Shown: positions 92-13,428, counted from the stretch's first letter. The stretch is 15,078 nt of DNA from Promethearchaeota archaeon (GCA_048941015.1 JBHLNZ010000070.1:1-15078), one strand, 5' to 3'. Notes: generated by a model not told the origin, from the letters alone. Program-made: numbers and translations.

Positions 92-772
92 TCAAACTTT
101 CTTTCCGATCGTTTGTTCCTCCCATTTATGATATAATTCCATTAATCTATCTATTTCTTCGAGATTTGCTTTTATGTTAAAAGCGATTTTTTTAGAGATC
201 CTAAAATATTCAGCATAAATTTCTTTGTTTCTTATCATTTTCTTTACAATTTTTACTACAGTGCCTTTATCGATTGATAGATTTTTAGAAATTGGTGTAA
301 GATTAACATCTGGATTCACAGTTCCCATTTTTAATACTTCACGTCTAATTAATGATTCTTCATCATAATCTAGCTTGAATCTTTTCAATACTAAAAATCC
401 ATATACAATATAAATAATTAAAGGAGCTATTAAGTTTCCCAACAAATTTTTTACTTCGCTTACGTAAAAAATAGGCCCTATCATAAATACACATCCCATA
501 ATTCCTATATATATACACTTATTCAAATCTAACCTTAACGCAAAATATATAGATATCCCTAAAAAAATTATAGCTAAATTCTTCAAAAAACTATGAATAT
601 TAGAATAAAACAAAGAATTTCCTGTAAACACTTTACCAAAAACAATAATTTCAATAACATTTCCTTCCATATCTACAGACGTGATTGCTTCTGTAAATGA
701 ACTAGTTATATAATATAAAATCAATAAAAAAATTAGTAAAAATGAAATAGATATCAAGTTCTTATTTTTCAT
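92..772 (-). CDS. 4-TM membrane protein with C-terminal PCI-like winged-helix domain (paralog B')
   Basis: Basic N-terminus and about four hydrophobic segments, then LTPISKNLSIDKGTVVKIVKKMIRNKEIYAEYFRISKKIAF and a terminal helix EEIDRLMELYHKWEE. ATG is preceded by AAGAGAG and lies 7 nt downstream of the upstream paralog's stop. Confidence 0.8.
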   Translation of the reverse strand: MKNKNLISISFLLIFLLILYYITSSFTEAITSVDMEGNVIEIIVFGKVFTGNSLFYSNIHSFLKNLAIIFLGISIYFALRLDLNKCIYIGIMGCVFMIGPIFYVSEVKNLLGNLIAPLIIYIVYGFLVLKRFKLDYDEESLIRREVLKMGTVNPDVNLTPISKNLSIDKGTVVKIVKKMIRNKEIYAEYFRISKKIAFNIKANLEEIDRLMELYHKWEEQTIGKKV

Positions 773-779
773 ACTCTCT

Positions 780-1469
780 TTAACCAGTGTCTTTTTTATA
801 TACTTTTTTTTCCCAATTTTTATAAAGGGCCATTAGGGCATCTAATTGATCAATATTTTTATTTTGGTCAAATTCAATCATTTTAGAGTCATCTGAATAG
901 ATCGCATATATTTCATTTGCTTGAATCATTGTATGTATTACTTTTTCTACCTTTTCTCTATTGACATAACACTTTTCGGCAATATCTCTTATCTCTAATC
1001 GATGAAATCTGGTACCTAAATCTATCACAGTGCTTTTGATTTTTTTTTGATCTTTTTTAAAAAAGGTTGATTTTAAAAAAATGATAAAAATTATTCCACA
1101 AAGCCCAACAAAAATGAAAATGTGGATGAAATTTACATGAAATGGAATAAGATTGAGAGATATTTCAACATAAAAGTAAATAACTGTATACATATAATTA
1201 ATAAATATTAATAAAAATCCAATTAAGCCATACAAAATAGTTAGATGAAATCTTAATTTGTACATAAAATTCATCGATACATATAAAAGACCTACACCAA
1301 TACTTCCAATGATTCCTGTGAAAAAGTTATGAAAGTCCTTTGGAATTTGTGGAACACTTGTCTCCAATTCAGAAGTAAATATTGAAACAAAGGGTACATA
1401 AAAAGTTGCGATAATGAAAATTACAATAAATGAAAATAATAATAATATAAACGTTCTATTTAACTTAAT
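780..1469 (-). CDS. 4-TM membrane protein with C-terminal PCI-like winged-helix domain (paralog A'); start extended to a putative ATT
   Basis: The track starts at TTG 1367, but the frame is open up to a TAA at 1475-1473 and adds IKLNRTFILLLFSFIVIFIIATFYVPFVSIF (basic end plus TM1). GAAGGTG at 1484-1478 lies 8 nt before ATT 1469. C-terminal domain is DLGTRFHRLEIRDIAEKC...EIYAIY...LMALYKNWE. The gene is well supported; the start is inferred. Confidence 0.75.
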   Translation of the reverse strand: MKLNRTFILLLFSFIVIFIIATFYVPFVSIFTSELETSVPQIPKDFHNFFTGIIGSIGVGLLYVSMNFMYKLRFHLTILYGLIGFLLIFINYMYTVIYFYVEISLNLIPFHVNFIHIFIFVGLCGIIFIIFLKSTFFKKDQKKIKSTVIDLGTRFHRLEIRDIAEKCYVNREKVEKVIHTMIQANEIYAIYSDDSKMIEFDQNKNIDQLDALMALYKNWEKKVYKKDTG

Positions 1470-1510
1470 CGGTTAAACACCTTCATTTTTCTTTTTACTA
1501 ATTATCTTTT

Positions 1511-2227
1511 TTAAATAATCTTTCCAATTGTTTGTTCCTCCCATCTATAATATAATTCCATTAATCTATCGATTTCTTCAATATTCACACGTCTGTTAAA
1601 TACAAACTTTCTTGAAATATTAAAATACTCTGCATATATTTCCTTCTTTCTTATCATTTCATTCACAACTTTGATAATGCTGTCCTTATCAACATTAATA
1701 TTCTTTGCTATCTCTTTAAGTTTTAAAAATTCATAATTTGTCCCTAAATCTAAAATTGTTTTTCTTATCTGAGCTTCTTGATTGTAATTTTTCCTCCTGC
1801 TTAAGCTTATCAATAAAATGAATTCTATAAGAAAGATCAATGGACTAAAAAACATCAATATTAAATCATTCAATAGATATGAGATTAAAGGAGAATAACT
1901 TAAACTAATCCAAGCTAAAAGACAGATGGGAATTAATAATGCTGTAAAAGTAACAATTAAGCCTCTTTTCCCATAAATTACTACTTTACTTAAATTTGAA
2001 TAAAAAATAAAAATTATTGAAACACCCATCAATAAAATTCCAAATAATATTCCATTCCATAATATATAAGAAATACTACCTGCTGGCCACCACACAATCA
2101 AATCATTAATATATTGATTGATATACTGATTTAAAAAGTGATTGTAAGTAAATGAGTCAAAAAATAATTGGGAGAGAAGAATTATAATACCTACAATTCC
2201 GAAAAGTTTTAAATTAGATCTTTTCAA
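1511..2227 (-). CDS. 4-TM membrane protein with C-terminal PCI-like winged-helix domain (paralog B)
   Basis: The track starts at 2263, but GAGAGGG + 6 nt + TTG at 2227 gives MKRSNLKLFGIVGIII and a 14-nt overlap with the upstream paralog, consistent with translational coupling. C-terminus is LKLKEIAKNINVDKDSIIKVVNEMIRKKEIYAEYF...EEIDRLMELYYRWEE. Confidence 0.8.
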   Translation of the reverse strand: MKRSNLKLFGIVGIIILLSQLFFDSFTYNHFLNQYINQYINDLIVWWPAGSISYILWNGILFGILLMGVSIIFIFYSNLSKVVIYGKRGLIVTFTALLIPICLLAWISLSYSPLISYLLNDLILMFFSPLIFLIEFILLISLSRRKNYNQEAQIRKTILDLGTNYEFLKLKEIAKNINVDKDSIIKVVNEMIRKKEIYAEYFNISRKFVFNRRVNIEEIDRLMELYYRWEEQTIGKII

Positions 2228-2930
2228 TGAATGCCCTCTCATCCAATTTTTTTCCAACTGCATCGCTTTCCCATTTTTTGTAAATTTGCATCAATTTATC
2301 AATCTCTTCTATGTTTATATCTTGATCCAATTGAATAACTTTAGTCTCGCTATTGTATTTAGCAAAAATCTCTTTATTCGCAATCATTTTATTTAGTATT
2401 TTATCAACCTTTTCTTGATTTAAAAAACATCTTTCAGCTATATCTTGTAATTCTAATTGAGTGAATTGAGTACCTAAATCTAAGATATTTTGTTTTATCG
2501 AGCTTTCCTCTTCATGTTTTAAAACTTTAAGAGAAGTGTTCAGCTTTTTATTTACTGAAATCATTAAAATTAATAAACCAAAAGATGAAAAAAAAGGAAT
2601 AGAGAGGAGATATTTAGGAAAAAGACTTGTTAATACTACAATATGATTAATTATTAATAATATTATGACTCTATTATAGAAAATTGTGGGCTGAAATTGT
2701 AATCTATGAAAATGTATTCTTGAAATTAATGTTAATATTAACCTTAACCACCCTATAAAGAACAGAATAACAGTTATAATATTATAAAGAGCCAATAAAT
2801 ATGGAGAATCCACATGAGATGCGGATGATACGATTTTTGCGAAAATAGTAAAATCTACCAGAATAATAAGTATTGAAATGAAAAATATTAAAAGATATAA
2901 TTTTTTTAATTTGTCTATATTCGATTTTAT
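2214..2930 (-). CDS. 4-TM membrane protein with C-terminal PCI-like winged-helix domain (paralog A); start extended to a putative ATA
   Basis: The track starts at GTG 2813, but the frame is open up to TGA 2939-2937 and adds IKSNIDKLKKLYLLIFFISILIILVDFTIFAKIV. AGGTGA at 2942-2937 precedes ATA 2930. C-terminus is DLGTQFTQLELQDIAERC...EIFAKY...EEIDKLMQIYKKWE. Confidence 0.75.
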   Translation of the reverse strand: MKSNIDKLKKLYLLIFFISILIILVDFTIFAKIVSSASHVDSPYLLALYNIITVILFFIGWLRLILTLISRIHFHRLQFQPTIFYNRVIILLIINHIVVLTSLFPKYLLSIPFFSSFGLLILMISVNKKLNTSLKVLKHEEESSIKQNILDLGTQFTQLELQDIAERCFLNQEKVDKILNKMIANKEIFAKYNSETKVIQLDQDINIEEIDKLMQIYKKWESDAVGKKLDERAFIEKI

Positions 2931-3016
2931 TAATTTTCACCTATTTGAAGCATATAATTAAGATTGATTGCTTTAAACTGAAATTTTCTCTTTATAATTC
3001 TGATTTGATCTTTTAA

Positions 3017-3030
3017 CTTATAAATGTTTC
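3017..3030 (-). promoter_or_regulatory. Putative BRE-TATA promoter for the four-gene PCI-like operon
   Basis: The minus strand reads GAAACA-TTTATAAG, a purine-rich BRE followed by a TTTATAA box, about 90 nt upstream of the first paralog. Confidence 0.5.
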
Positions 3031-3063
3031 AAAAATTATTAAAAAAAGAAAATAGAAAAAATT

Positions 3064-3498
3064 TTACATAAATACTATTGTACCTTCGCCAGATGTTACG
3101 ATTTCACCATTCTGATTCTTAACTATTGTATCAGCAATAATGAATTTCAATTTACCTTCTTTTTTAGTAAACTTTTCTTTTACAGTAGCAACTGCAGTTA
3201 ATTTATCGCCAAAAAACACAGGCTTTATAAATTTCACTGTTTGTCCACCATATAAAATTCCAGGTCCAAATAATTTCGTTCCTAAAACTGCCGAGATTAA
3301 GCCAGAGCTTAAAGCACCATGAGCTACTTGCTTTCCAAACATCTGAGTTTTAGCATATTCAGGATTTACGTGAATAGGGTTGTAATCTCCTGTCACTTCT
3401 GCAAATTTCATTACATCCTCTTCGGTTATTGTTTTGGTGAATTCTGCGGAATCGCCTACTTTATAATCATCCCATTTAACAGGTTCTAGATTTGACAT
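3064..3498 (-). CDS. MaoC/PhaJ-family (R)-specific enoyl-CoA hydratase (hotdog fold)
   Basis: FAEVTGDYNPIH (D-x4-H catalytic dyad), VAHGAL and FIKPVFFGD motifs. No SD, and TTTTTATC lies about 23-30 nt upstream, so it is probably leaderless. Confidence 0.92.
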   Translation of the reverse strand: MSNLEPVKWDDYKVGDSAEFTKTITEEDVMKFAEVTGDYNPIHVNPEYAKTQMFGKQVAHGALSSGLISAVLGTKLFGPGILYGGQTVKFIKPVFFGDKLTAVATVKEKFTKKEGKLKFIIADTIVKNQNGEIVTSGEGTIVFM

Positions 3499-3626
3499 AA
3501 ATAAATTTAATGAAAAAATAGATAAAAATCTTAACTATTAAGATAAAGAAAAAGAAATAAAAAATGTCAACAATTGAATAAAATTATCTTAAATTGAATT
3601 AAAAATTAATAAAAGGGGAAAAAAAA

Positions 3627-4886
3627 ATGGGAAGATTAGCTAGAAAAGTTGCTTTAGTGGGAGCGGGAATGTCTAAATTTGGAAACCACTTTCCCGTAAA
3701 ACGTAATCCTGATTTATGGATTGATGCTTGGCTAAATGCAGTTGAAAGTGTAGATAATGGAATTGAACCAAAAGACATTGACGCTTGTTATGTTGGAAAT
3801 TATTCTTCAGACTTGTTCAATCATCAGGGACATTTAGGCCCCCAGATGGCTAATTTGGTTGGATTAACTCCAAAACCAGCATCAAGATTTGAAGGAGCGT
3901 GTGCTAGTAGCGGTATAGCATTACGACAGGCTATTATAGCAATTGCTTCAGGCGTACATGATGTAATTGCTGTGTCTGGGGTAGAATGTATGACTGAACT
4001 TCCAACAGCAGGAGTTACAGATGTTTTAGCAACGGCGTCTGATAGCTTGTTTGAATATCCAGCTGGGGCGACATTTCCAGGACTATATGCAACCTTAGCA
4101 TCAGCACATTTTCATAAATATGGAACGACTGCAGAAGATTTGATGAGAGTTGGAATTAAAAATCATGCAAATGGAGCAGAAAATCCGTATGCACAAATGC
4201 AGAGTTCAATTGCTGATATGATGAAAAAAAAAATAGCAAAAATAGAACAATCAGGGGGAACCGTTCCAGATTGGAAGGATGAATTTGATTATCTTAAAAG
4301 TTCTTCCAATCCTATTATTGCGTATCCACTTCGCCTTTTTGATTGTAGTCTCATCACAGATGGCTCAGCTTGCTTATTTCTCACTTCTGGGGAATTCGCT
4401 AAAAAATATACGGATACTCCAGTATGGATTACTGGTACAGGTCAAGGTAGTGCTGCTTTATCATTACATGACAGAGATTCATTAACATCTTTTATTGCTA
4501 CTAAAGAGGCATCAAGACAGGCTTATCAAATGTCTGGTTTGAAACCCAAAGATATTCAAATCTGTGAAGTCCATGATTGTTTTACTATTGCAGAAATTGT
4601 AGCTCTTGAGGATTTAGGTTTCTATGAAAAAGGAAAGGCAGTAGAAGCTATAAAAAATGGAGAAACAAAAAGAGATGGAACTTTACCAATTAACACCTCT
4701 GGAGGTTTAAAGTCAAAAGGACATCCTGTTGGAGCGAGTGGGGCTGCAATGGCAGTGGAAATTTTCAAACAAATGAAGGGTAAAGCAGAAAGGAATAGGC
4801 AAGTTAAAATCGATGTAGAAAGAGCTATGACACATAATTTAGGAGGATCTGGAGGAACTTGTGTGGTAACAATTTATGAGAGGTGA
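3627..4886 (+). CDS. Thiolase, SCP2-type/archaeal DUF35-associated subfamily
   Basis: EGACASSG (nucleophile C92), EVHDCFT (HDCF fingerprint), INTSGGLKSKGHPVGASG and C-terminal HNLGG. Confidence 0.95.
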   Translation: MGRLARKVALVGAGMSKFGNHFPVKRNPDLWIDAWLNAVESVDNGIEPKDIDACYVGNYSSDLFNHQGHLGPQMANLVGLTPKPASRFEGACASSGIALRQAIIAIASGVHDVIAVSGVECMTELPTAGVTDVLATASDSLFEYPAGATFPGLYATLASAHFHKYGTTAEDLMRVGIKNHANGAENPYAQMQSSIADMMKKKIAKIEQSGGTVPDWKDEFDYLKSSSNPIIAYPLRLFDCSLITDGSACLFLTSGEFAKKYTDTPVWITGTGQGSAALSLHDRDSLTSFIATKEASRQAYQMSGLKPKDIQICEVHDCFTIAEIVALEDLGFYEKGKAVEAIKNGETKRDGTLPINTSGGLKSKGHPVGASGAAMAVEIFKQMKGKAERNRQVKIDVERAMTHNLGGSGGTCVVTIYER

Positions 4887-4896
4887 TCATGAGAAT

Positions 4897-5319
4897 ATGT
4901 CAGAAGTAGAAAAGGACTTTACAATACAAAACTATTTGGAATTCCTACAAAATAGAAAATTAATGGGTTCAAAGTGTAAAGATTGTGGGACATTATATGC
5001 TCCAGTAAGGAAATTATGCACAAAATGTAATACCGCTAACATGGAATGGGTTGAAATGTCTGGAAAAGGGAAATTGACAGCTTTTACAAGTATTACTGTA
5101 GGTACTCCTTACTTTATCCAGAAAGGCTATGATAGAAATAAACCATATTGCTTTTCAATTATTACTCTTGAAGAAGGACCAATGGTTTCAGCCCAACTTG
5201 TTGGGGTAGACGAAAGTAAGCCAGATACTATCAAAATTGGTATGCCAGTGAAAGTAAAATTTCTGGAAACGGAAATTAAAGGAGAAACTAAAATAGATTT
5301 AGGTTTTGAACCTAATTAA
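4897..5319 (+). CDS. DUF35-family Zn-ribbon plus OB-fold protein (thiolase partner)
   Basis: CKDC...CTKC zinc ribbon, WVEMSGKGKL, PY, LEEGP and IKIGMPVKVKF. It directly follows the thiolase. GAGGTGA at 4880-4886 favours ATG 4897 over 4876. Confidence 0.92.
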   Translation: MSEVEKDFTIQNYLEFLQNRKLMGSKCKDCGTLYAPVRKLCTKCNTANMEWVEMSGKGKLTAFTSITVGTPYFIQKGYDRNKPYCFSIITLEEGPMVSAQLVGVDESKPDTIKIGMPVKVKFLETEIKGETKIDLGFEPN

Positions 5320-5502
5320 ATTTTTAAATATCTTTTTTATTTCTAATTTTTTTAATTAATTAATACACACGTCTTATATTGTTAAATTAGTAGTGGGCTA
5401 GTATTAAAAGACTATATAAAAGAATGATTATTGTATTCATTTCTTTCTCTATTATTATTAAGAATTAAGAAAATAATATCGATAATAAAAAAAGTAAAAA
5501 AT

Positions 5503-6456
5503 TTAATGAGTACATTCCCACATATAGTGACCATATTTCTGTTTAAATTCCTCTGCAAACTCGTTTATTTTTGGTCTTATAAATTCATATCCATACTGAA
5601 TACATTCATAAGTAACAGGTAATAATCCTAATACCTCACCATCAACTTGACAATAATATGGATCTTCTTCGGAATTTTTCATTTCTACTCTCACTTTCTT
5701 GCTCTGATATTCACTAATATCAGGATGAGGGAGAAGTGAGGCATTATACATTCTTCTAAATTGTCTTGCTAATTTAACCTTATCAATATTTACTATACTT
5801 ATGTCAAAAAGGCCGTCTTCAATACTAGCTCTTTGGCAAATAAACATCCCTCCTCCGTAAGCTCCAGAAAGCCCTACTGCAGCAAGATTTGCTTCACCTT
5901 CAAATGTATCATTATCCATTTTAACGATAATTTCTTGGTTTTCCCATTCTCGTAATAAGGTAAGAATTATCATGTTATAATCCTTTTCTTTATTTTCATT
6001 TGATCTACGAGCTACCTCACTATCAAATCCTTGAGAACCTATCCCTAAAAAATAGCGTTCTGTCCCATCATCTCGCCTAGCAAAACCAATATCTGATTTA
6101 CTTGAATATCCTTCAGCAATAATTTCACAAGCTCTTTTTATATCTGCCTTATAACCAATAGCAGCGGGAATGTCATTTCCGGATCCCATAGGGATAAACC
6201 CACATAAAGCTCCCGTCTTTGACATAATTGTACCATGCAATACTTCGTTAGCAGTACCGTCACCTCCTGCTCCAATAACGCGAAAACCATCTTTAGCAAG
6301 ATTTATAGCTAAATCGATTGCGTGTCCTGCATATTCTGTAGCAAAAAGTTTGAATTTTACATTTAATTCATTTAAATATTTGCTAACCTCATTGATTTGC
6401 TTCCCTACTTCACCTTTATTAGCCGTTGGGTTATATATGATTGCGTAATCTGTCAT
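5503..6456 (-). CDS. Diacylglycerol/lipid kinase family protein (DAGK_cat, YegS/DgkB-like)
   Basis: IYNPTA, TEYAGHA, GGDGT, PMGSGND, YGGG, EDGLFD and QVDGE motifs. GTGAG SD, and a TTTATAT box at 6511-6505 on the minus strand. Confidence 0.92.
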   Translation of the reverse strand: MTDYAIIYNPTANKGEVGKQINEVSKYLNELNVKFKLFATEYAGHAIDLAINLAKDGFRVIGAGGDGTANEVLHGTIMSKTGALCGFIPMGSGNDIPAAIGYKADIKRACEIIAEGYSSKSDIGFARRDDGTERYFLGIGSQGFDSEVARRSNENKEKDYNMIILTLLREWENQEIIVKMDNDTFEGEANLAAVGLSGAYGGGMFICQRASIEDGLFDISIVNIDKVKLARQFRRMYNASLLPHPDISEYQSKKVRVEMKNSEEDPYYCQVDGEVLGLLPVTYECIQYGYEFIRPKINEFAEEFKQKYGHYMWECTH

Positions 6457-6572
6457 AATATTCTCACTTTGATTTAGATCGTGATATAAAATTAGTTTAA
6501 ATTAATATAAATATCTTTTTTTTTTCCAAAAAAGTTTCATCATTTCTATTTCCAGGTGGATTATCTTCTATT

Positions 6573-6629
6573 GAAATTGAACTTCAAGGCGGAGAGACTC
6601 GAGTAGATTTAGGTTTTAGATCCAATTAA
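6573..6629 (+). pseudogene. Orphan 3'-end remnant of a DUF35 gene
   Basis: Translates EIELQGGETRVDLGFRSN*, against ETEIKGETKIDLGFEPN* at the end of the intact DUF35 gene. 6591-6629 matches 5281-5319 at 31/39 nt, including an exact 14-mer TAGATTTAGGTTTT. Confidence 0.75.
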
Positions 6630-6708
6630 GCATTCTGAAAAAATTTAATTATGTTTTTTTTATTTTAATACTATAGTTAATATTAGATTCCATTAATTGG
6701 TGGGTTAA

Positions 6709-7857
6709 ATCGAACGTAAAGCAAAATTAATAATTATTATTTCAATGATAACTATAATCTATTCCGGATTAATAATTACCATAATCCTTTTCTATGGAAA
6801 TAACTTCAACAATCTAGATATTGATCTAAATTTTGATGATACTAATGCTTTTTCTTATATCGAAGATCAATTGAATATTAATACTACTCATTATCGAATA
6901 CCAGGTACTCAGGGAAGAGAGGATTGTGCACAATATTTTATATCCAAATTTCAGGAGATTGATCCTACTTATAATTATATTTTACATAATTTTACTATTA
7001 ATTCAATTGAATGCCAAAATGTATTATTTAAATTTAATGATAACAATTCAAAAATCTTAATCTTAGGAGCACATTATGATTCAAGAGCAAGAGCAACAAA
7101 AGATTCAAATTATCCAAACTCACCTGTACCTGGAGCTAACGACGGTGCAAGTGGAAGTGCTGTTCTTATAGAATTAGCAAGAGCACTCTATAATAGATCT
7201 ACTGATCTTTCAGTTCAAATTTGGTTCTTATTTTTTGATGCAGAAGATCAAGGTTATGACCAGAGTTATGGAATCAATGGCTGGGATTGGTGCGAAGGTT
7301 CAAATAAATTTGTAGATGAGATTGAGAATTTTTATAACTTGACACATGAGCGAATTGAAGCAATGATTTTATTAGATATGGTTGGTGGAATAGGCTTAAA
7401 ATTTATTAAAGAACAGTATTCTACTTCCTCATTATTAGATGAGCTATTTGAAACAGGACGACAATTAGGATATGAATCTGAATTTCCAATTAATGCAATA
7501 TCGCAATCGATAACAGACGATCATGTTCCTTTCGTAAATTACGGCATACCTTCAGCAGATTTAATAATTAATTTCTGGCAAAATCCTAATTGGCCTTATC
7601 ATCATACCATAGATGACAATTTGCAGAACATTTCAAATTTTAGTCTTGAGGTTACTGGAAGAACTGTTGAACAATTTATTTATAATAATTATATGGATCC
7701 CAACGACGAATATCATGGAAATTACCCTTGGAAAGGAGACTTAAATCTTCCAGATACCACCTCTTTAATCATAATTTTAACCATTACAGTTTTGATAGGG
7801 ATTTTTAGTATCATGACTTTAATTTTAAAGAAGTTTAAGAAGAAGCCTGAAACTTAA
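6709..7857 (+). CDS. M28-family Zn enzyme, glutaminyl cyclase-like, with N- and C-terminal membrane segments
   Basis: GAHYDSR, GANDGASG, FFDAED, LLDMVG, TDDHVPF and HHT motifs. The C-terminal TM is followed by KKFKKK. First ATG is 6745. I propose ATC 6709 (GGTG + 6 nt, just after an in-frame TAA), which adds IERKAKLIIIIS. Confidence 0.85.
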   Translation: MERKAKLIIIISMITIIYSGLIITIILFYGNNFNNLDIDLNFDDTNAFSYIEDQLNINTTHYRIPGTQGREDCAQYFISKFQEIDPTYNYILHNFTINSIECQNVLFKFNDNNSKILILGAHYDSRARATKDSNYPNSPVPGANDGASGSAVLIELARALYNRSTDLSVQIWFLFFDAEDQGYDQSYGINGWDWCEGSNKFVDEIENFYNLTHERIEAMILLDMVGGIGLKFIKEQYSTSSLLDELFETGRQLGYESEFPINAISQSITDDHVPFVNYGIPSADLIINFWQNPNWPYHHTIDDNLQNISNFSLEVTGRTVEQFIYNNYMDPNDEYHGNYPWKGDLNLPDTTSLIIILTITVLIGIFSIMTLILKKFKKKPET

Positions 7858-11024: not shown

Positions 11025-11263
11025 ATTCAATTTTTATCTATCTTTTTTTTATTAATATCATTGAATTTTTATTGCTTAATTAATAAAATTTTTAAGATTT
11101 CTAAGATTTGAAAAAAATGTTATGTCTTGTAATTTATTACGAGACAACATTAATACATAAAAACAATAAAACAAAACGAATTAAAACTAAAAAACTCAAC
11201 ACTTTTTGACCTAGATAGTGAAAAAGTGAATTAAGTGACTAAAATATAAGGAAGTGAAAACTT

Positions 11264-11545
11264 ATGTCAAAGAAAGAAGAAAATGCCGTATTTGTTGGAC
11301 GGCGTCCAACAATGAACTACGTTATGGCCACGATGATGATTCTTAATAAAGGAGAAGAATGCACCGTTAAGGCTAGAGGCAGGGCTATTTCCCATGCCGT
11401 AGACGTATGCGAAATCCTTAGAAACAGATTCTTAAAGGGAACTGAATATAAGGAGATAAAACTTAGTACCGAACAACTCGAAGGAGAAAATGGTCAAAAC
11501 AATAATGTTTCAAGCATTGAGATCGTTCTCGCCCCACCAAAATAG
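11264..11545 (+). CDS. albA: DNA/RNA-binding chromatin protein Alba
   Basis: VFVGRRPTMNYV, VKARGRAISHAVDVCEILRNRF and VSSIEIVL are Alba signatures. Confidence 0.96.
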   Translation: MSKKEENAVFVGRRPTMNYVMATMMILNKGEECTVKARGRAISHAVDVCEILRNRFLKGTEYKEIKLSTEQLEGENGQNNNVSSIEIVLAPPK

Positions 11546-11591
11546 ACAATAAATATTTCATCTGTTCGGGAATACAATAAAACATTAAACT

Positions 11592-11611
11592 CTTTTTTTT
11601 ATTATTTTTTT
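11592..11611 (+). terminator. Oligo-T tract, probable archaeal terminator after albA
   Basis: Two long T runs about 50 nt after the stop. Similar tracts follow the DUF35 gene (~5331), the 72-aa gene (~11041) and the histone gene (~12121). Confidence 0.4.
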
Positions 11612-11890
11612 ATCGGGTTTGGTTTTAAACTAATATTGTTAAAGTTTTTCTTTTAAGTTTAAATATTTTCTATGAATTATTTGTTATCGCCAACATTTAT
11701 TATGTTTATTATTCTTCAAATTCTGAAGTTACAGAACTTAAATTGAGTAGTTAATAATAAAATTCAATAAGATTTAAAAACAGAAATAGTAATAATTATT
11801 ATTAACAAATCAATCTATAACAGTTTAATTTTTAACTATATCTAAATTAAATATTAAAAAATTAAAATTATAAAAGGTAGGAGAGTAAAA

Positions 11891-12094
11891 ATGGCCAAAA
11901 AAGCTGCAGGTAAAGTTGAACCGCTTTTTGTTAAATCTAAAGTTCGTGAATATATTAAAGGAAAAGGATTAAATACTTCTAGCGGTATTCTTGATGGAGA
12001 AGCTCTTAATGGTATGATCACTTGGATGCTTGATAAAGCAGTTGAAAGAGCAAAAGGGAATGGGCGAAAAACCGTAAAAGCAAGAGATTTATAA
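11891..12094 (+). CDS. Short histone-fold protein, alpha3-truncated type (face-to-face/DUF1931-related or bacterial Bd0055-like)
   Basis: LFVKSKVREYIK (alpha1), GLNTS (L1), a long alpha2 ending KAVERAKGNG, and RKTVKARD (RxTxxxxD). The chain stops one residue later. AGGAG SD. Confidence 0.88.
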   Translation: MAKKAAGKVEPLFVKSKVREYIKGKGLNTSSGILDGEALNGMITWMLDKAVERAKGNGRKTVKARDL

Positions 12095-12243
12095 TCATTA
12101 TAATCCAAAAATTAATCTTAATTTTATTTTTTTATTATTATCTTTAATCTTACAGATTTTATAAATTTCTAAATCTCTTTTTTAAAAACTAATATTATTA
12201 AAATTATAGAAGCAATTTGAATAAGAGATTCTAGAATAACTAA

Positions 12244-13428
12244 CTATTTTAAATAATTCTCAATATGATTGTATACTTCTTCTAGAATCTCTAAAGTTGG
12301 TAAAAAAGTTAGACGAATATGACCTTTACCGTATTCTCCGAATCCTGACCCATATACCGTACAAACTCCTGTTTCTTTTAAAAGTTTTATAGCAAAATCT
12401 TTATCATCTTTCCATTTCTTCAATTCTTTAAAGTCTAATTTAGGAAATAAATAAAATGCCCCATTGGGATTTACACAATTCATTCCTTCTATCTGACGTA
12501 TTCTTTTATATGAATAATCACGTCTCTCTTTCAATTTTTTTACCATTTCTTTAGTGTGAGTCCCTGGATTTTTTAAGATCTGAATTGCAGCATGTTGTGC
12601 TATTGAACTTGCACACAATCTTGCTCTTGCTAATTTTGCTACAGCTTGCTTAAGATCTTGCAATTTATTTTCTGGATCGTAATAATAAAGATAACCTAGC
12701 CTCCAACCTGTAACTAAATGCGTTTTTGAAAAACCATTCAATCCTATAACTGGTACATCTTTACTTATAGATGCTGGACATATATAAGGCTTATCATATG
12801 TAATATGATCATAAATTTCATCAGATATGACGGGTAAATTATACTCTCCAGCTAAATCAATTATACTTCTAACTTTCTTCTCGCTATATAACACTCCTGT
12901 GGGGTTATTTGGCGAGCAAATTAAAATTGCTTGAGTTTCACTAGAAATCTTTTTTCTTAAATCTTCAATATTAGGCTCCCATTCATCGTTCTCATCTAAT
13001 TCATACTCAATCGGTAAACCATCAAAAAATTTAGCATAATTAATATACAATGGATATGAAGGGCCAGGGATCAATATTTGGTTATTATTCTCAATCATTC
13101 CAGCTAATAAAAAATATATTCCTTCTGTAACACCAGTTGTAATCAAAATGTCATCAGGATTAATGTCTAATCTGTTATTACTTTTTAATAGGTTGCTTAT
13201 TTCTTTTCTCAGTTCATAGATACCCATCGAATCAACATAATAATTTTTTCCCTCAAAAGTAGCATCTGCTAAAGCTTGAGAAATATATTGAGGAGTGGAA
13301 AGATCATATATTACGGGATCTCCAATATTAAGATGATATACTTTCTTTCCACTTTTTTCCACTTCATTAGCTACAACTGCTATTTCTCTAATTGCATATT
13401 CAATCTCTTTTAATCTTTTAGACACCAT
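12244..13428 (-). CDS. PLP-dependent aminotransferase class I/II, AlaA/alanine aminotransferase-like
   Basis: IEYAIR, LNIGDP, SPNNPTG, ISDEIYD, NGFSK (PLP Lys) and TGWRLGY. GTGA SD before ATG 13428 makes it a better start than TTG 13467. Confidence 0.93.
   Translation of the reverse strand: MVSKRLKEIEYAIREIAVVANEVEKSGKKVYHLNIGDPVIYDLSTPQYISQALADATFEGKNYYVDSMGIYELRKEISNLLKSNNRLDINPDDILITTGVTEGIYFLLAGMIENNNQILIPGPSYPLYINYAKFFDGLPIEYELDENDEWEPNIEDLRKKISSETQAILICSPNNPTGVLYSEKKVRSIIDLAGEYNLPVISDEIYDHITYDKPYICPASISKDVPVIGLNGFSKTHLVTGWRLGYLYYYDPENKLQDLKQAVAKLARARLCASSIAQHAAIQILKNPGTHTKEMVKKLKERRDYSYKRIRQIEGMNCVNPNGAFYLFPKLDFKELKKWKDDKDFAIKLLKETGVCTVYGSGFGEYGKGHIRLTFLPTLEILEEVYNHIENYLK

Follow-up and report, generated by a model that had tools for sequence, protein, structure and literature searches.

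Candidate ATA, ATT and ATC start codons behind Shine-Dalgarno motifs on a Promethearchaeota contig and in related genomes

The locus and its candidate start sites

The Promethearchaeota archaeon contig JBHLNZ010000070.1 (assembly GCA_048941015.1) carries three genes that are predicted to begin at ATA, ATT and ATC, respectively, each behind a Shine-Dalgarno (SD) motif: two encode membrane proteins with a C-terminal PCI domain (here genes A and A') and the third encodes an M28-family peptidase. The window analyzed is the entire 15,078-bp contig, and the genome to which it belongs (G000) is a metagenome assembly of 3.59 Mb in 144 contigs at 29.4% G+C, with a gene content (PCI-domain proteins, Ras-like GTPases, the initiation factor aIF1 and intron-rich tRNAs) that fits a Lokiarchaeia-type Asgard archaeon. 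Its relatives in the genome collection used here belong to one genus of its family, and the order includes closed genomes of other families. Throughout, ATH denotes ATA, ATT or ATC, and canonical start codons are ATG, GTG and TTG. The features at the three sites, with lengths in nucleotides (nt) and amino acids (aa), are as follows:

2937..2942, minus strand: AGGTGA, SD motif of gene A, complementary to the 16S 3' end GGATCACCTCCT; the TGA it contains is in frame and marks the upstream limit of the open frame
2928..2930, minus strand: ATA, proposed start of gene A, 7 nt after AGGTG (2942-2938), with an in-frame TGA two codons upstream
2214..2930, minus strand: gene A, membrane protein with C-terminal PCI domain, 238 aa (Pfam PCI, E = 3.9e-8)
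1478..1484, minus strand: GAAGGTG, SD motif of gene A'; the same GAAGGTG precedes, by 6 nt, the ATG of the paralog starting at 11800 on contig C59
1467..1469, minus strand: ATT, proposed start of gene A', 8 nt after GGTG and preceded by TAA and then one codon (CCG)
780..1469, minus strand: gene A', membrane protein with C-terminal PCI domain, 229 aa (Pfam PCI, E = 3.2e-6)
6699..6702, plus strand: GGTG, SD core of the M28 peptidase gene, 6 nt ahead of ATC
6709..6711, plus strand: ATC, proposed start of the M28 peptidase gene, directly after TAA
6709..7857, plus strand: M28-family peptidase with N-terminal signal anchor, 382 aa (Pfam Peptidase_M28, E = 5e-33)

At each site, the SD motif, its spacing, the upstream in-frame stop and the downstream gap of 12-39 codons before any canonical start were found as the initial annotation had described them. 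Canonical codons first appear with GTG 2813 in gene A (39 codons downstream of ATA 2930), TTG 1367 in gene A' (34 codons downstream of ATT 1469) and ATG 6745 in the M28 peptidase gene (12 codons downstream of ATC 6709). The public protein collection holds gene A as a truncated 199-aa form, gene A' as a truncated 195-aa form and the M28 peptidase as a 370-aa form beginning at ATG 6745, in keeping with the earlier expectation that standard gene callers would shorten such genes. Read from ATH, the three products reach the proposed 238, 229 and 382 aa, and all pass their Pfam gathering scores (33.8 bits for gene A and 27.7 bits for gene A' against a PCI (PF01399) cut-off of 22; 114.9 bits for the M28 gene against a PF04389 cut-off of 21.3).

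The extensions had also been proposed to supply or complete a hydrophobic helix, and they do: the most hydrophobic segments of genes A and A' (residues 13-31 and 7-25, respectively) lie wholly inside the ATH-dependent extensions, and that of gene A lines up with helix 1 in six paralogs. If the canonical codons were instead the correct starts, the upstream open stretches would be untranslated leader kept open by chance. These codons are the ones used by the public gene calls, ATG 6745 still gives the peptidase a hydrophobic N-terminus, and the three extensions are themselves predictions from sequence. However, none of GTG 2813, TTG 1367 and ATG 6745 has an SD motif, and starting genes A and A' at these positions would remove a helix that is common to all seven paralogs.

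Paralogs and sequence reproducibility

The seven paralogs, all membrane proteins with a C-terminal PCI/winged-helix domain, occur in two tandem clusters, one in the window at 92-2930 (-) and the other on contig C59 at 11165-13270 (-). The other features of the window cluster are as follows:

1511..2263, minus strand: paralog B, canonical start (ATG 2263, or TTG 2227 to give 238 aa)
92..772, minus strand: paralog B', ATG start, 226 aa
1460..1486, minus strand: short out-of-frame open reading frame (ORF) of 8 codons from ATG 1486, overlapping the SD motif and ATT of gene A'; its ATG has no SD motif of its own

Helix 1 in the extensions of both gene A and gene A' aligns with helix 1 of all the paralogs. 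The tandem C59 paralogs place an ATG 7 nt behind AGGTG and an ATG 6 nt behind GAAGGTG at the aligned start position, and the predicted start of gene A', (I)KLNRTF, aligns with the MKKLNSRTL of an ATG-started C59 paralog. A crude hydropathy script, which merges neighboring helices, counted three helices in A and A' and four in B and B', where the initial annotation had given A and A' four as well. Begun at ATG 2263, the longest frame of gene B shares 50 nt with the end of gene A (2214-2263, minus strand); TTG 2227 lies behind GAGGG and would yield a 238-aa product, the length given in the initial annotation. Either codon may be the start of gene B.

Sequencing or assembly error was weighed as well, in the form of an ATG wrongly read as ATH or of a 1-nt indel, the latter at sites (i) and (ii), the starts of genes A and A'. 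The genome is a fragmented metagenome assembly, a 52-codon frame from GTG 2940 could be joined to gene A through an A7 homopolymer at 2901-2907, and the short ORF raised by the initial annotation is indeed present, its ATG 1486 being one base out of frame with gene A'. Nevertheless, a 3,040-bp stretch that takes in the ATA, the ATT and the A7 homopolymer is 100% identical in three assemblies, each built from its own sequencing run, which weakens the indel alternatives at both sites, among them the one that had been left standing for gene A'. Neither GTG 2940 nor ATG 1486 has an SD motif, GTG 2940 being itself the SD core, and SD and ATH are arranged in the same way in dozens of genes and across more than 30 genomes. 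We consider such an error highly improbable, and the short ORF at ATG 1486 is probably incidental.

The M28 peptidase and its orthologs

Orthologs of the M28 peptidase were found in 38 of 41 genomes of the genus, with alignments beginning at residues 1-5, so that the extension is conserved at the protein level across the genus. Among 30 of these orthologs inspected at the DNA level, 23 have GGTG followed after 6 or 7 nt by ATH (ATA in 20, ATC in 2 and ATT in 1); three have GTT at this position, and the remaining four were mis-parsed by the script. The ATH codon is followed by K-K/R and then a membrane helix, as expected from the basic N-terminus and hydrophobic helix first proposed for this gene, and several orthologs lack any canonical codon for 26-105 codons. 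None of the 30 has ATG at the ATH position. The initial annotation had suggested that orthologs might show ATG opposite ATH: within the family, ATH stands opposite ATH, and ATG was seen only in other families or in paralogs. Because the GGTG spacing alternates between 6 and 7 nt and its GTG is variously in frame, out of frame or followed by TGA, what is kept is the SD motif rather than a GTG codon.

Three M28 orthologs (L031-L033) with GTT, and one ortholog of the iron-sulfur scaffold gene IscU (L056) with GTA, carry these codons at the ATH position, 7 nt behind GGTG, as the sole start on offer. This hints that GTH codons may initiate too.

The region upstream of the M28 gene in the window also contains, at 6541-6630 (+), a remnant 3' end of an OB-fold/DUF35-type gene (ending in IEIELQGGETRVDLGFRSN and a stop), which is similar to the terminal part of the gene at 4876-5319 (ending in ETEIKGETKIDLGFEPN and a stop). 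In the genus orthologs, the end of an OB-fold/DUF35-type gene lies directly upstream of the M28 gene; this suggests that the diacylglycerol-kinase-like gene at 5503-6456 (-) was inserted here, either duplicating the OB-fold/DUF35 end or leaving a piece of it behind.

ATH codons behind the strong SD across the genome

The 16S 3' tail GGATCACCTCCT was located on contig C101, and the (A)GGTG(A) motif is complementary to it. Confident ATG starts in G000 have SD motifs that match this tail, with a GGTG peak 7-8 nt upstream in a minority of genes only. We then considered 3,651 stop-to-stop frames that reach 100 codons or more and, within them, the codons that come after the bounding stop but before the first ATG, GTG or TTG (pre-canonical codons). 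Among pre-canonical codons, GGTG lies exactly 7 nt upstream of 30 of 5,009 ATH codons, as against 16 of 31,548 other codons (odds ratio (OR) 11.9, p = 1.2e-15). The control classes gave 3 of 5,299 for AAH, 1 of 5,485 for TTH and 12 of 19,437 for the rest. The earlier claim that this lineage often uses ATH starts thus has support at the level of the genome, and the M28, IscU and aIF1 orthologs agree with it.

A second count was restricted to GGTG+7 boundaries, that is, codons 7 nt after GGTG that open a frame of at least 100 codons and have a stop within six codons upstream. In G000, these codons are ATG in 21 cases, TTG in 18, GTG in 6, ATT in 15, ATA in 10 and ATC in 3, with control codons at 6 (AAA), 0 (AAT), 1 (TTA) and 1 (TTT), such that ATH (28) exceeds ATG (21). 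At control spacings of 4, 10 and 13 nt in the same frame class, ATH accounts for 6-10 of about 95 codons and AAA is dominant. The class richest in ATH starts is AGGTG at 7 nt, the arrangement of gene A, with 17 ATH among 56 sites. By motif, the ATH share of starts is 38-40% for GGTGA or AGGTG, falling to 12% for the weak HGTGA and to 6-10% for GGAGG.

The neighboring ATG-started genes in the window had been said to have the same GTG motif and spacing as the three ATH genes. They do carry GTG(A) 6-8 nt upstream, but in the weaker AGTGA form. More generally, ATG-started genes mostly have the weaker AGTGA motif or no SD motif, and behind GGTG at 7 nt, TTG is almost as common as ATG (18 vs 21). 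Strong SD motifs and strong start codons seem to avoid each other.

The stretches between ATH and the first canonical codon score as coding-like, at +0.10 bits per codon, where non-coding upstream sequence scores -0.16 (p = 9e-12). An SD-independent screen for long, coding-like pre-canonical regions returned 42 ORFs, 28 of which have an SD-ATH pair, a figure that rests on a noisy 4-mer SD definition and is a rough lower bound. From these patterns, at least 30-50 genes in G000 very probably start at ATH, and members of its family likewise.

Other ATH-started genes

A total of 38 boundary cases were listed, and Pfam was run on the ATH-started proteins. In IscU (contig C55, position 8272), the ATT is Pfam profile position 1 (IYSEKV...). 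Across 30 family genomes from several genera, the IscU Met1 position is ATT in 20, ATA in 7, ATC in 2 and GTA in 1, whereas the IscU of a closed genome from another family has ATG there. A small GTPase has its Ras domain from residue 9 and its next canonical codon only at codon 11, and a ParA/MinD-type ATPase offers none until a GTG inside the Walker A motif GKGGVGKT. A canonical start would cost a crotonase 22 domain residues and FolE2 54. Genome-wide, the extensions both score as coding and complete Pfam domains, and together with the conserved M28 extension and the M28 orthologs lacking nearby canonical codons this makes it unlikely that the canonical starts are correct and the upstream stretches untranslated.

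The gene for aIF1 (SUI1 domain; contig C101, 18498-18839, minus strand) has a 113-codon frame whose first 73 codons include no canonical one. About 26 family genomes keep an ATT or ATC shortly before the zinc knuckle, 9 nt after GTGA, and no canonical codon precedes the knuckle. In other families, the aIF1 start is ATG or TTG in four of five genomes examined and ATA in the fifth. The initial annotation had suggested that aIF1 might have lost start-fidelity residues, but no obvious family-specific loss in the aIF1 core was seen in an alignment of 12 sequences.

It had further been suggested that ATH initiation might serve to dampen membrane-protein expression. We found no enrichment of membrane proteins among ATH-started genes (17 of 48, against 29 of 85 canonical SD-led genes, p = 1.0), and these genes include cytosolic IscU, GTPases and enzymes, so the proposed purpose gains no support.

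Breadth across the order

GGTG+7 boundary codons were also counted in unbiased 1.2-Mb samples. A closed genome from another genus of the family gave ATG 1, TTG 3 and ATH 15 (OR 9.6, p = 4e-8), and a like-sized sample of G000 gave ATG 5, GTG 2, TTG 8 and ATH 12. The closed genome of a second family (G032, 31% G+C) gave ATG 14, GTG 3, TTG 2 and ATH 2, which is not significant (OR 2.0, p = 0.22), and the contrast outside the family rests on this single 1.2-Mb sample. The ATH habit thus extends across the family, and the one genome sampled outside it shows no significant excess.

Initiator tRNA and proposed mechanism

In the mechanism we propose, the strong (A)GGTG(A) SD motif would pair with the 16S 3' tail and bring into the P site whichever codon follows it by 6-8 nt (optimum 7); there the ordinary initiator Met-tRNA (anticodon CAU) may initiate on AUA, AUU or AUC despite the third-position mismatch, which the strong SD would offset. 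About a third of the genes behind a strong SD would use ATH in this manner, including housekeeping enzymes and the start-codon proofreader aIF1. ATH starts would be expected to yield less protein than ATG, and the ATT start of aIF1 may form an infC-like feedback loop that sets stringency.

An initiator tRNA with a normal GGGCTCATAACCC anticodon arm was found in G000 using an anticodon-arm pattern, and the pattern search of this genome detected no initiator-like arm with an Ile anticodon (GAT or TAT). Together, these results favor SD-anchored near-cognate initiation by the initiator Met-tRNA. Alternatively, ATH could be read by another decoder, be it an initiator-like tRNA with an Ile anticodon, an elongator Ile-tRNA, or RNA editing to AUG. 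Such a decoder would suit the free interchange of ATT, ATA and ATC without a single ATG among 30 IscU and 30 M28 orthologs, as if an Ile codon were being read, and the GTT or GTA present there in four orthologs lends it some further support. Nor is the tRNA inventory complete: ARAGORN, run with and without introns, called 16-19 tRNAs and Rfam 23, none of them a Met or Ile tRNA. Nevertheless, CAT is the only Met/Ile anticodon on a tRNA-like arm with the initiator GGG/CCC stem, A-to-I editing would account for ATA alone when the commonest start is ATT, and AT-biased drift at 29% GC accounts for the rarity of third-position G and C. We therefore regard another decoder as very unlikely.

Most G000 tRNAs escape ARAGORN, presumably owing to introns. 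One selenocysteine tRNA (tRNA-SeC, anticodon TCA) was called by ARAGORN on contig C119 at about 65081 (-), and a GGGCTTCAAACCC anticodon arm, also TCA, was found in the same place and is probably the same gene. This tRNA suggests selenocysteine use.

Weighing the start-site assignments

We put at roughly 85% the reading that genes A, A' and the M28 peptidase gene start at ATA 2930(-), ATT 1469(-) and ATC 6709(+), as instances of a family-wide, SD-led ATH initiation predicted from the patterns above. Several points weigh against it. Initiation at the three codons is deduced from sequence. No full-length orthologs of A or A' were found in 40 relatives, only PCI-domain matches, so sites (i) and (ii) rest on the paralogs, the genome-wide pattern and the reproducibility of the sequence; the three identical assemblies have neighboring run accessions and may represent one population and one sequencing technology. 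At the 8-nt spacing of site (ii), the genome-wide ATH enrichment is weak (OR 1.65, p = 0.09). For the M28 gene, G000 might additionally use the in-frame ATG that lies 12 codons further on, and in orthologs with the 6-nt spacing the GTG of the SD motif is in frame, making them ambiguous when taken alone. The extensions score below true N-termini in coding potential (+0.10 vs +0.25), so some ATH candidates are probably false. Given the incomplete tRNA inventory, an unusual initiator also retains a small residual probability.

A broader interpretation is that the family has shifted its initiation rules, such that behind a GGTG SD motif AUH (and perhaps GUU/GUA) would be the commonest start and ATG scarce, with a loop through the AUU-started aIF1 keeping stringency low. 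We offer this tentatively and rate its chances at somewhat less than even.

Implications

Where gene finders accept only ATG, GTG and TTG, a few per cent of genes in these genomes would be shortened or overlooked, and signal anchors, first membrane helices, Walker A strands and the aIF1 zinc knuckle are among the parts lost to annotation. Truncated calls of this kind would distort protein families, topology predictions and structure models derived from Asgard metagenomes. A family in which AUH rivals AUG, and in which the eIF1 homolog is itself predicted to be AUH-initiated, would provide a natural system for the study of start-codon stringency in the lineage closest to eukaryotes. The contrast between families would offer a dated evolutionary transition, with the habit pronounced in two genera of this family but short of significance in the closed second-family genome. 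If the interpretation is true, close relatives of eukaryotes would present a natural, lineage-wide relaxation of start-codon fidelity, and the evolution of start selection based on aIF1/eIF1 would become testable.

Comparison with known systems

No paper describing AUH starts in Asgard archaea came up in a full-text literature search. Near-cognate SD-led initiation is known, and it is the apparent frequency, the lineage and the factor gene seen here for which we found no earlier description. In bacteria, SD-led AUU, AUA and AUC starts are rare exceptions, found for instance in E. coli infC and pcnB, and these codons are listed as alternative initiators in NCBI table 11. The sites described here are like those of infC and pcnB in that a near-cognate AUH stands at a normal distance behind an SD motif and is presumably read by a CAU initiator tRNA. 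As with infC, the gene of a fidelity factor, here aIF1, itself has a weak start codon. Unlike in bacteria, however, ATH rivals or exceeds ATG behind the strong GGTG SD motif, and the organism is an archaeon with the eukaryote-type factors aIF1, aIF1A and aIF2, not IF3.

Eukaryotes also use near-cognate initiation, and their eIF1 is autoregulated through a poor start context. Similarly, the homolog aIF1 here lies behind a sub-optimal initiation signal, and near-cognate codons serve a minority of proteins. In contrast to eukaryotes, the arrangement is SD-anchored, without scanning, and the poor signal is the codon itself and not its context. By analogy, the near-cognate start of aIF1 would fit a feedback loop like those of infC and eIF1.

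For archaea, AUG, GUG and UUG are the sole start codons given in the reviews of initiation consulted (PMC7531240 among them), which describe SD motifs as rare in Lokiarchaea. SD-dependent initiation in Pyrococcus abyssi has been studied with the model mRNA GGAGGUGAUUUAA-AUG (PMC6237735). The genes described here share with P. abyssi the same anti-SD tail, the GGTG core and a spacing of 6-7 nt, and they differ from its canonical initiation in that the predicted start codon is AUH.

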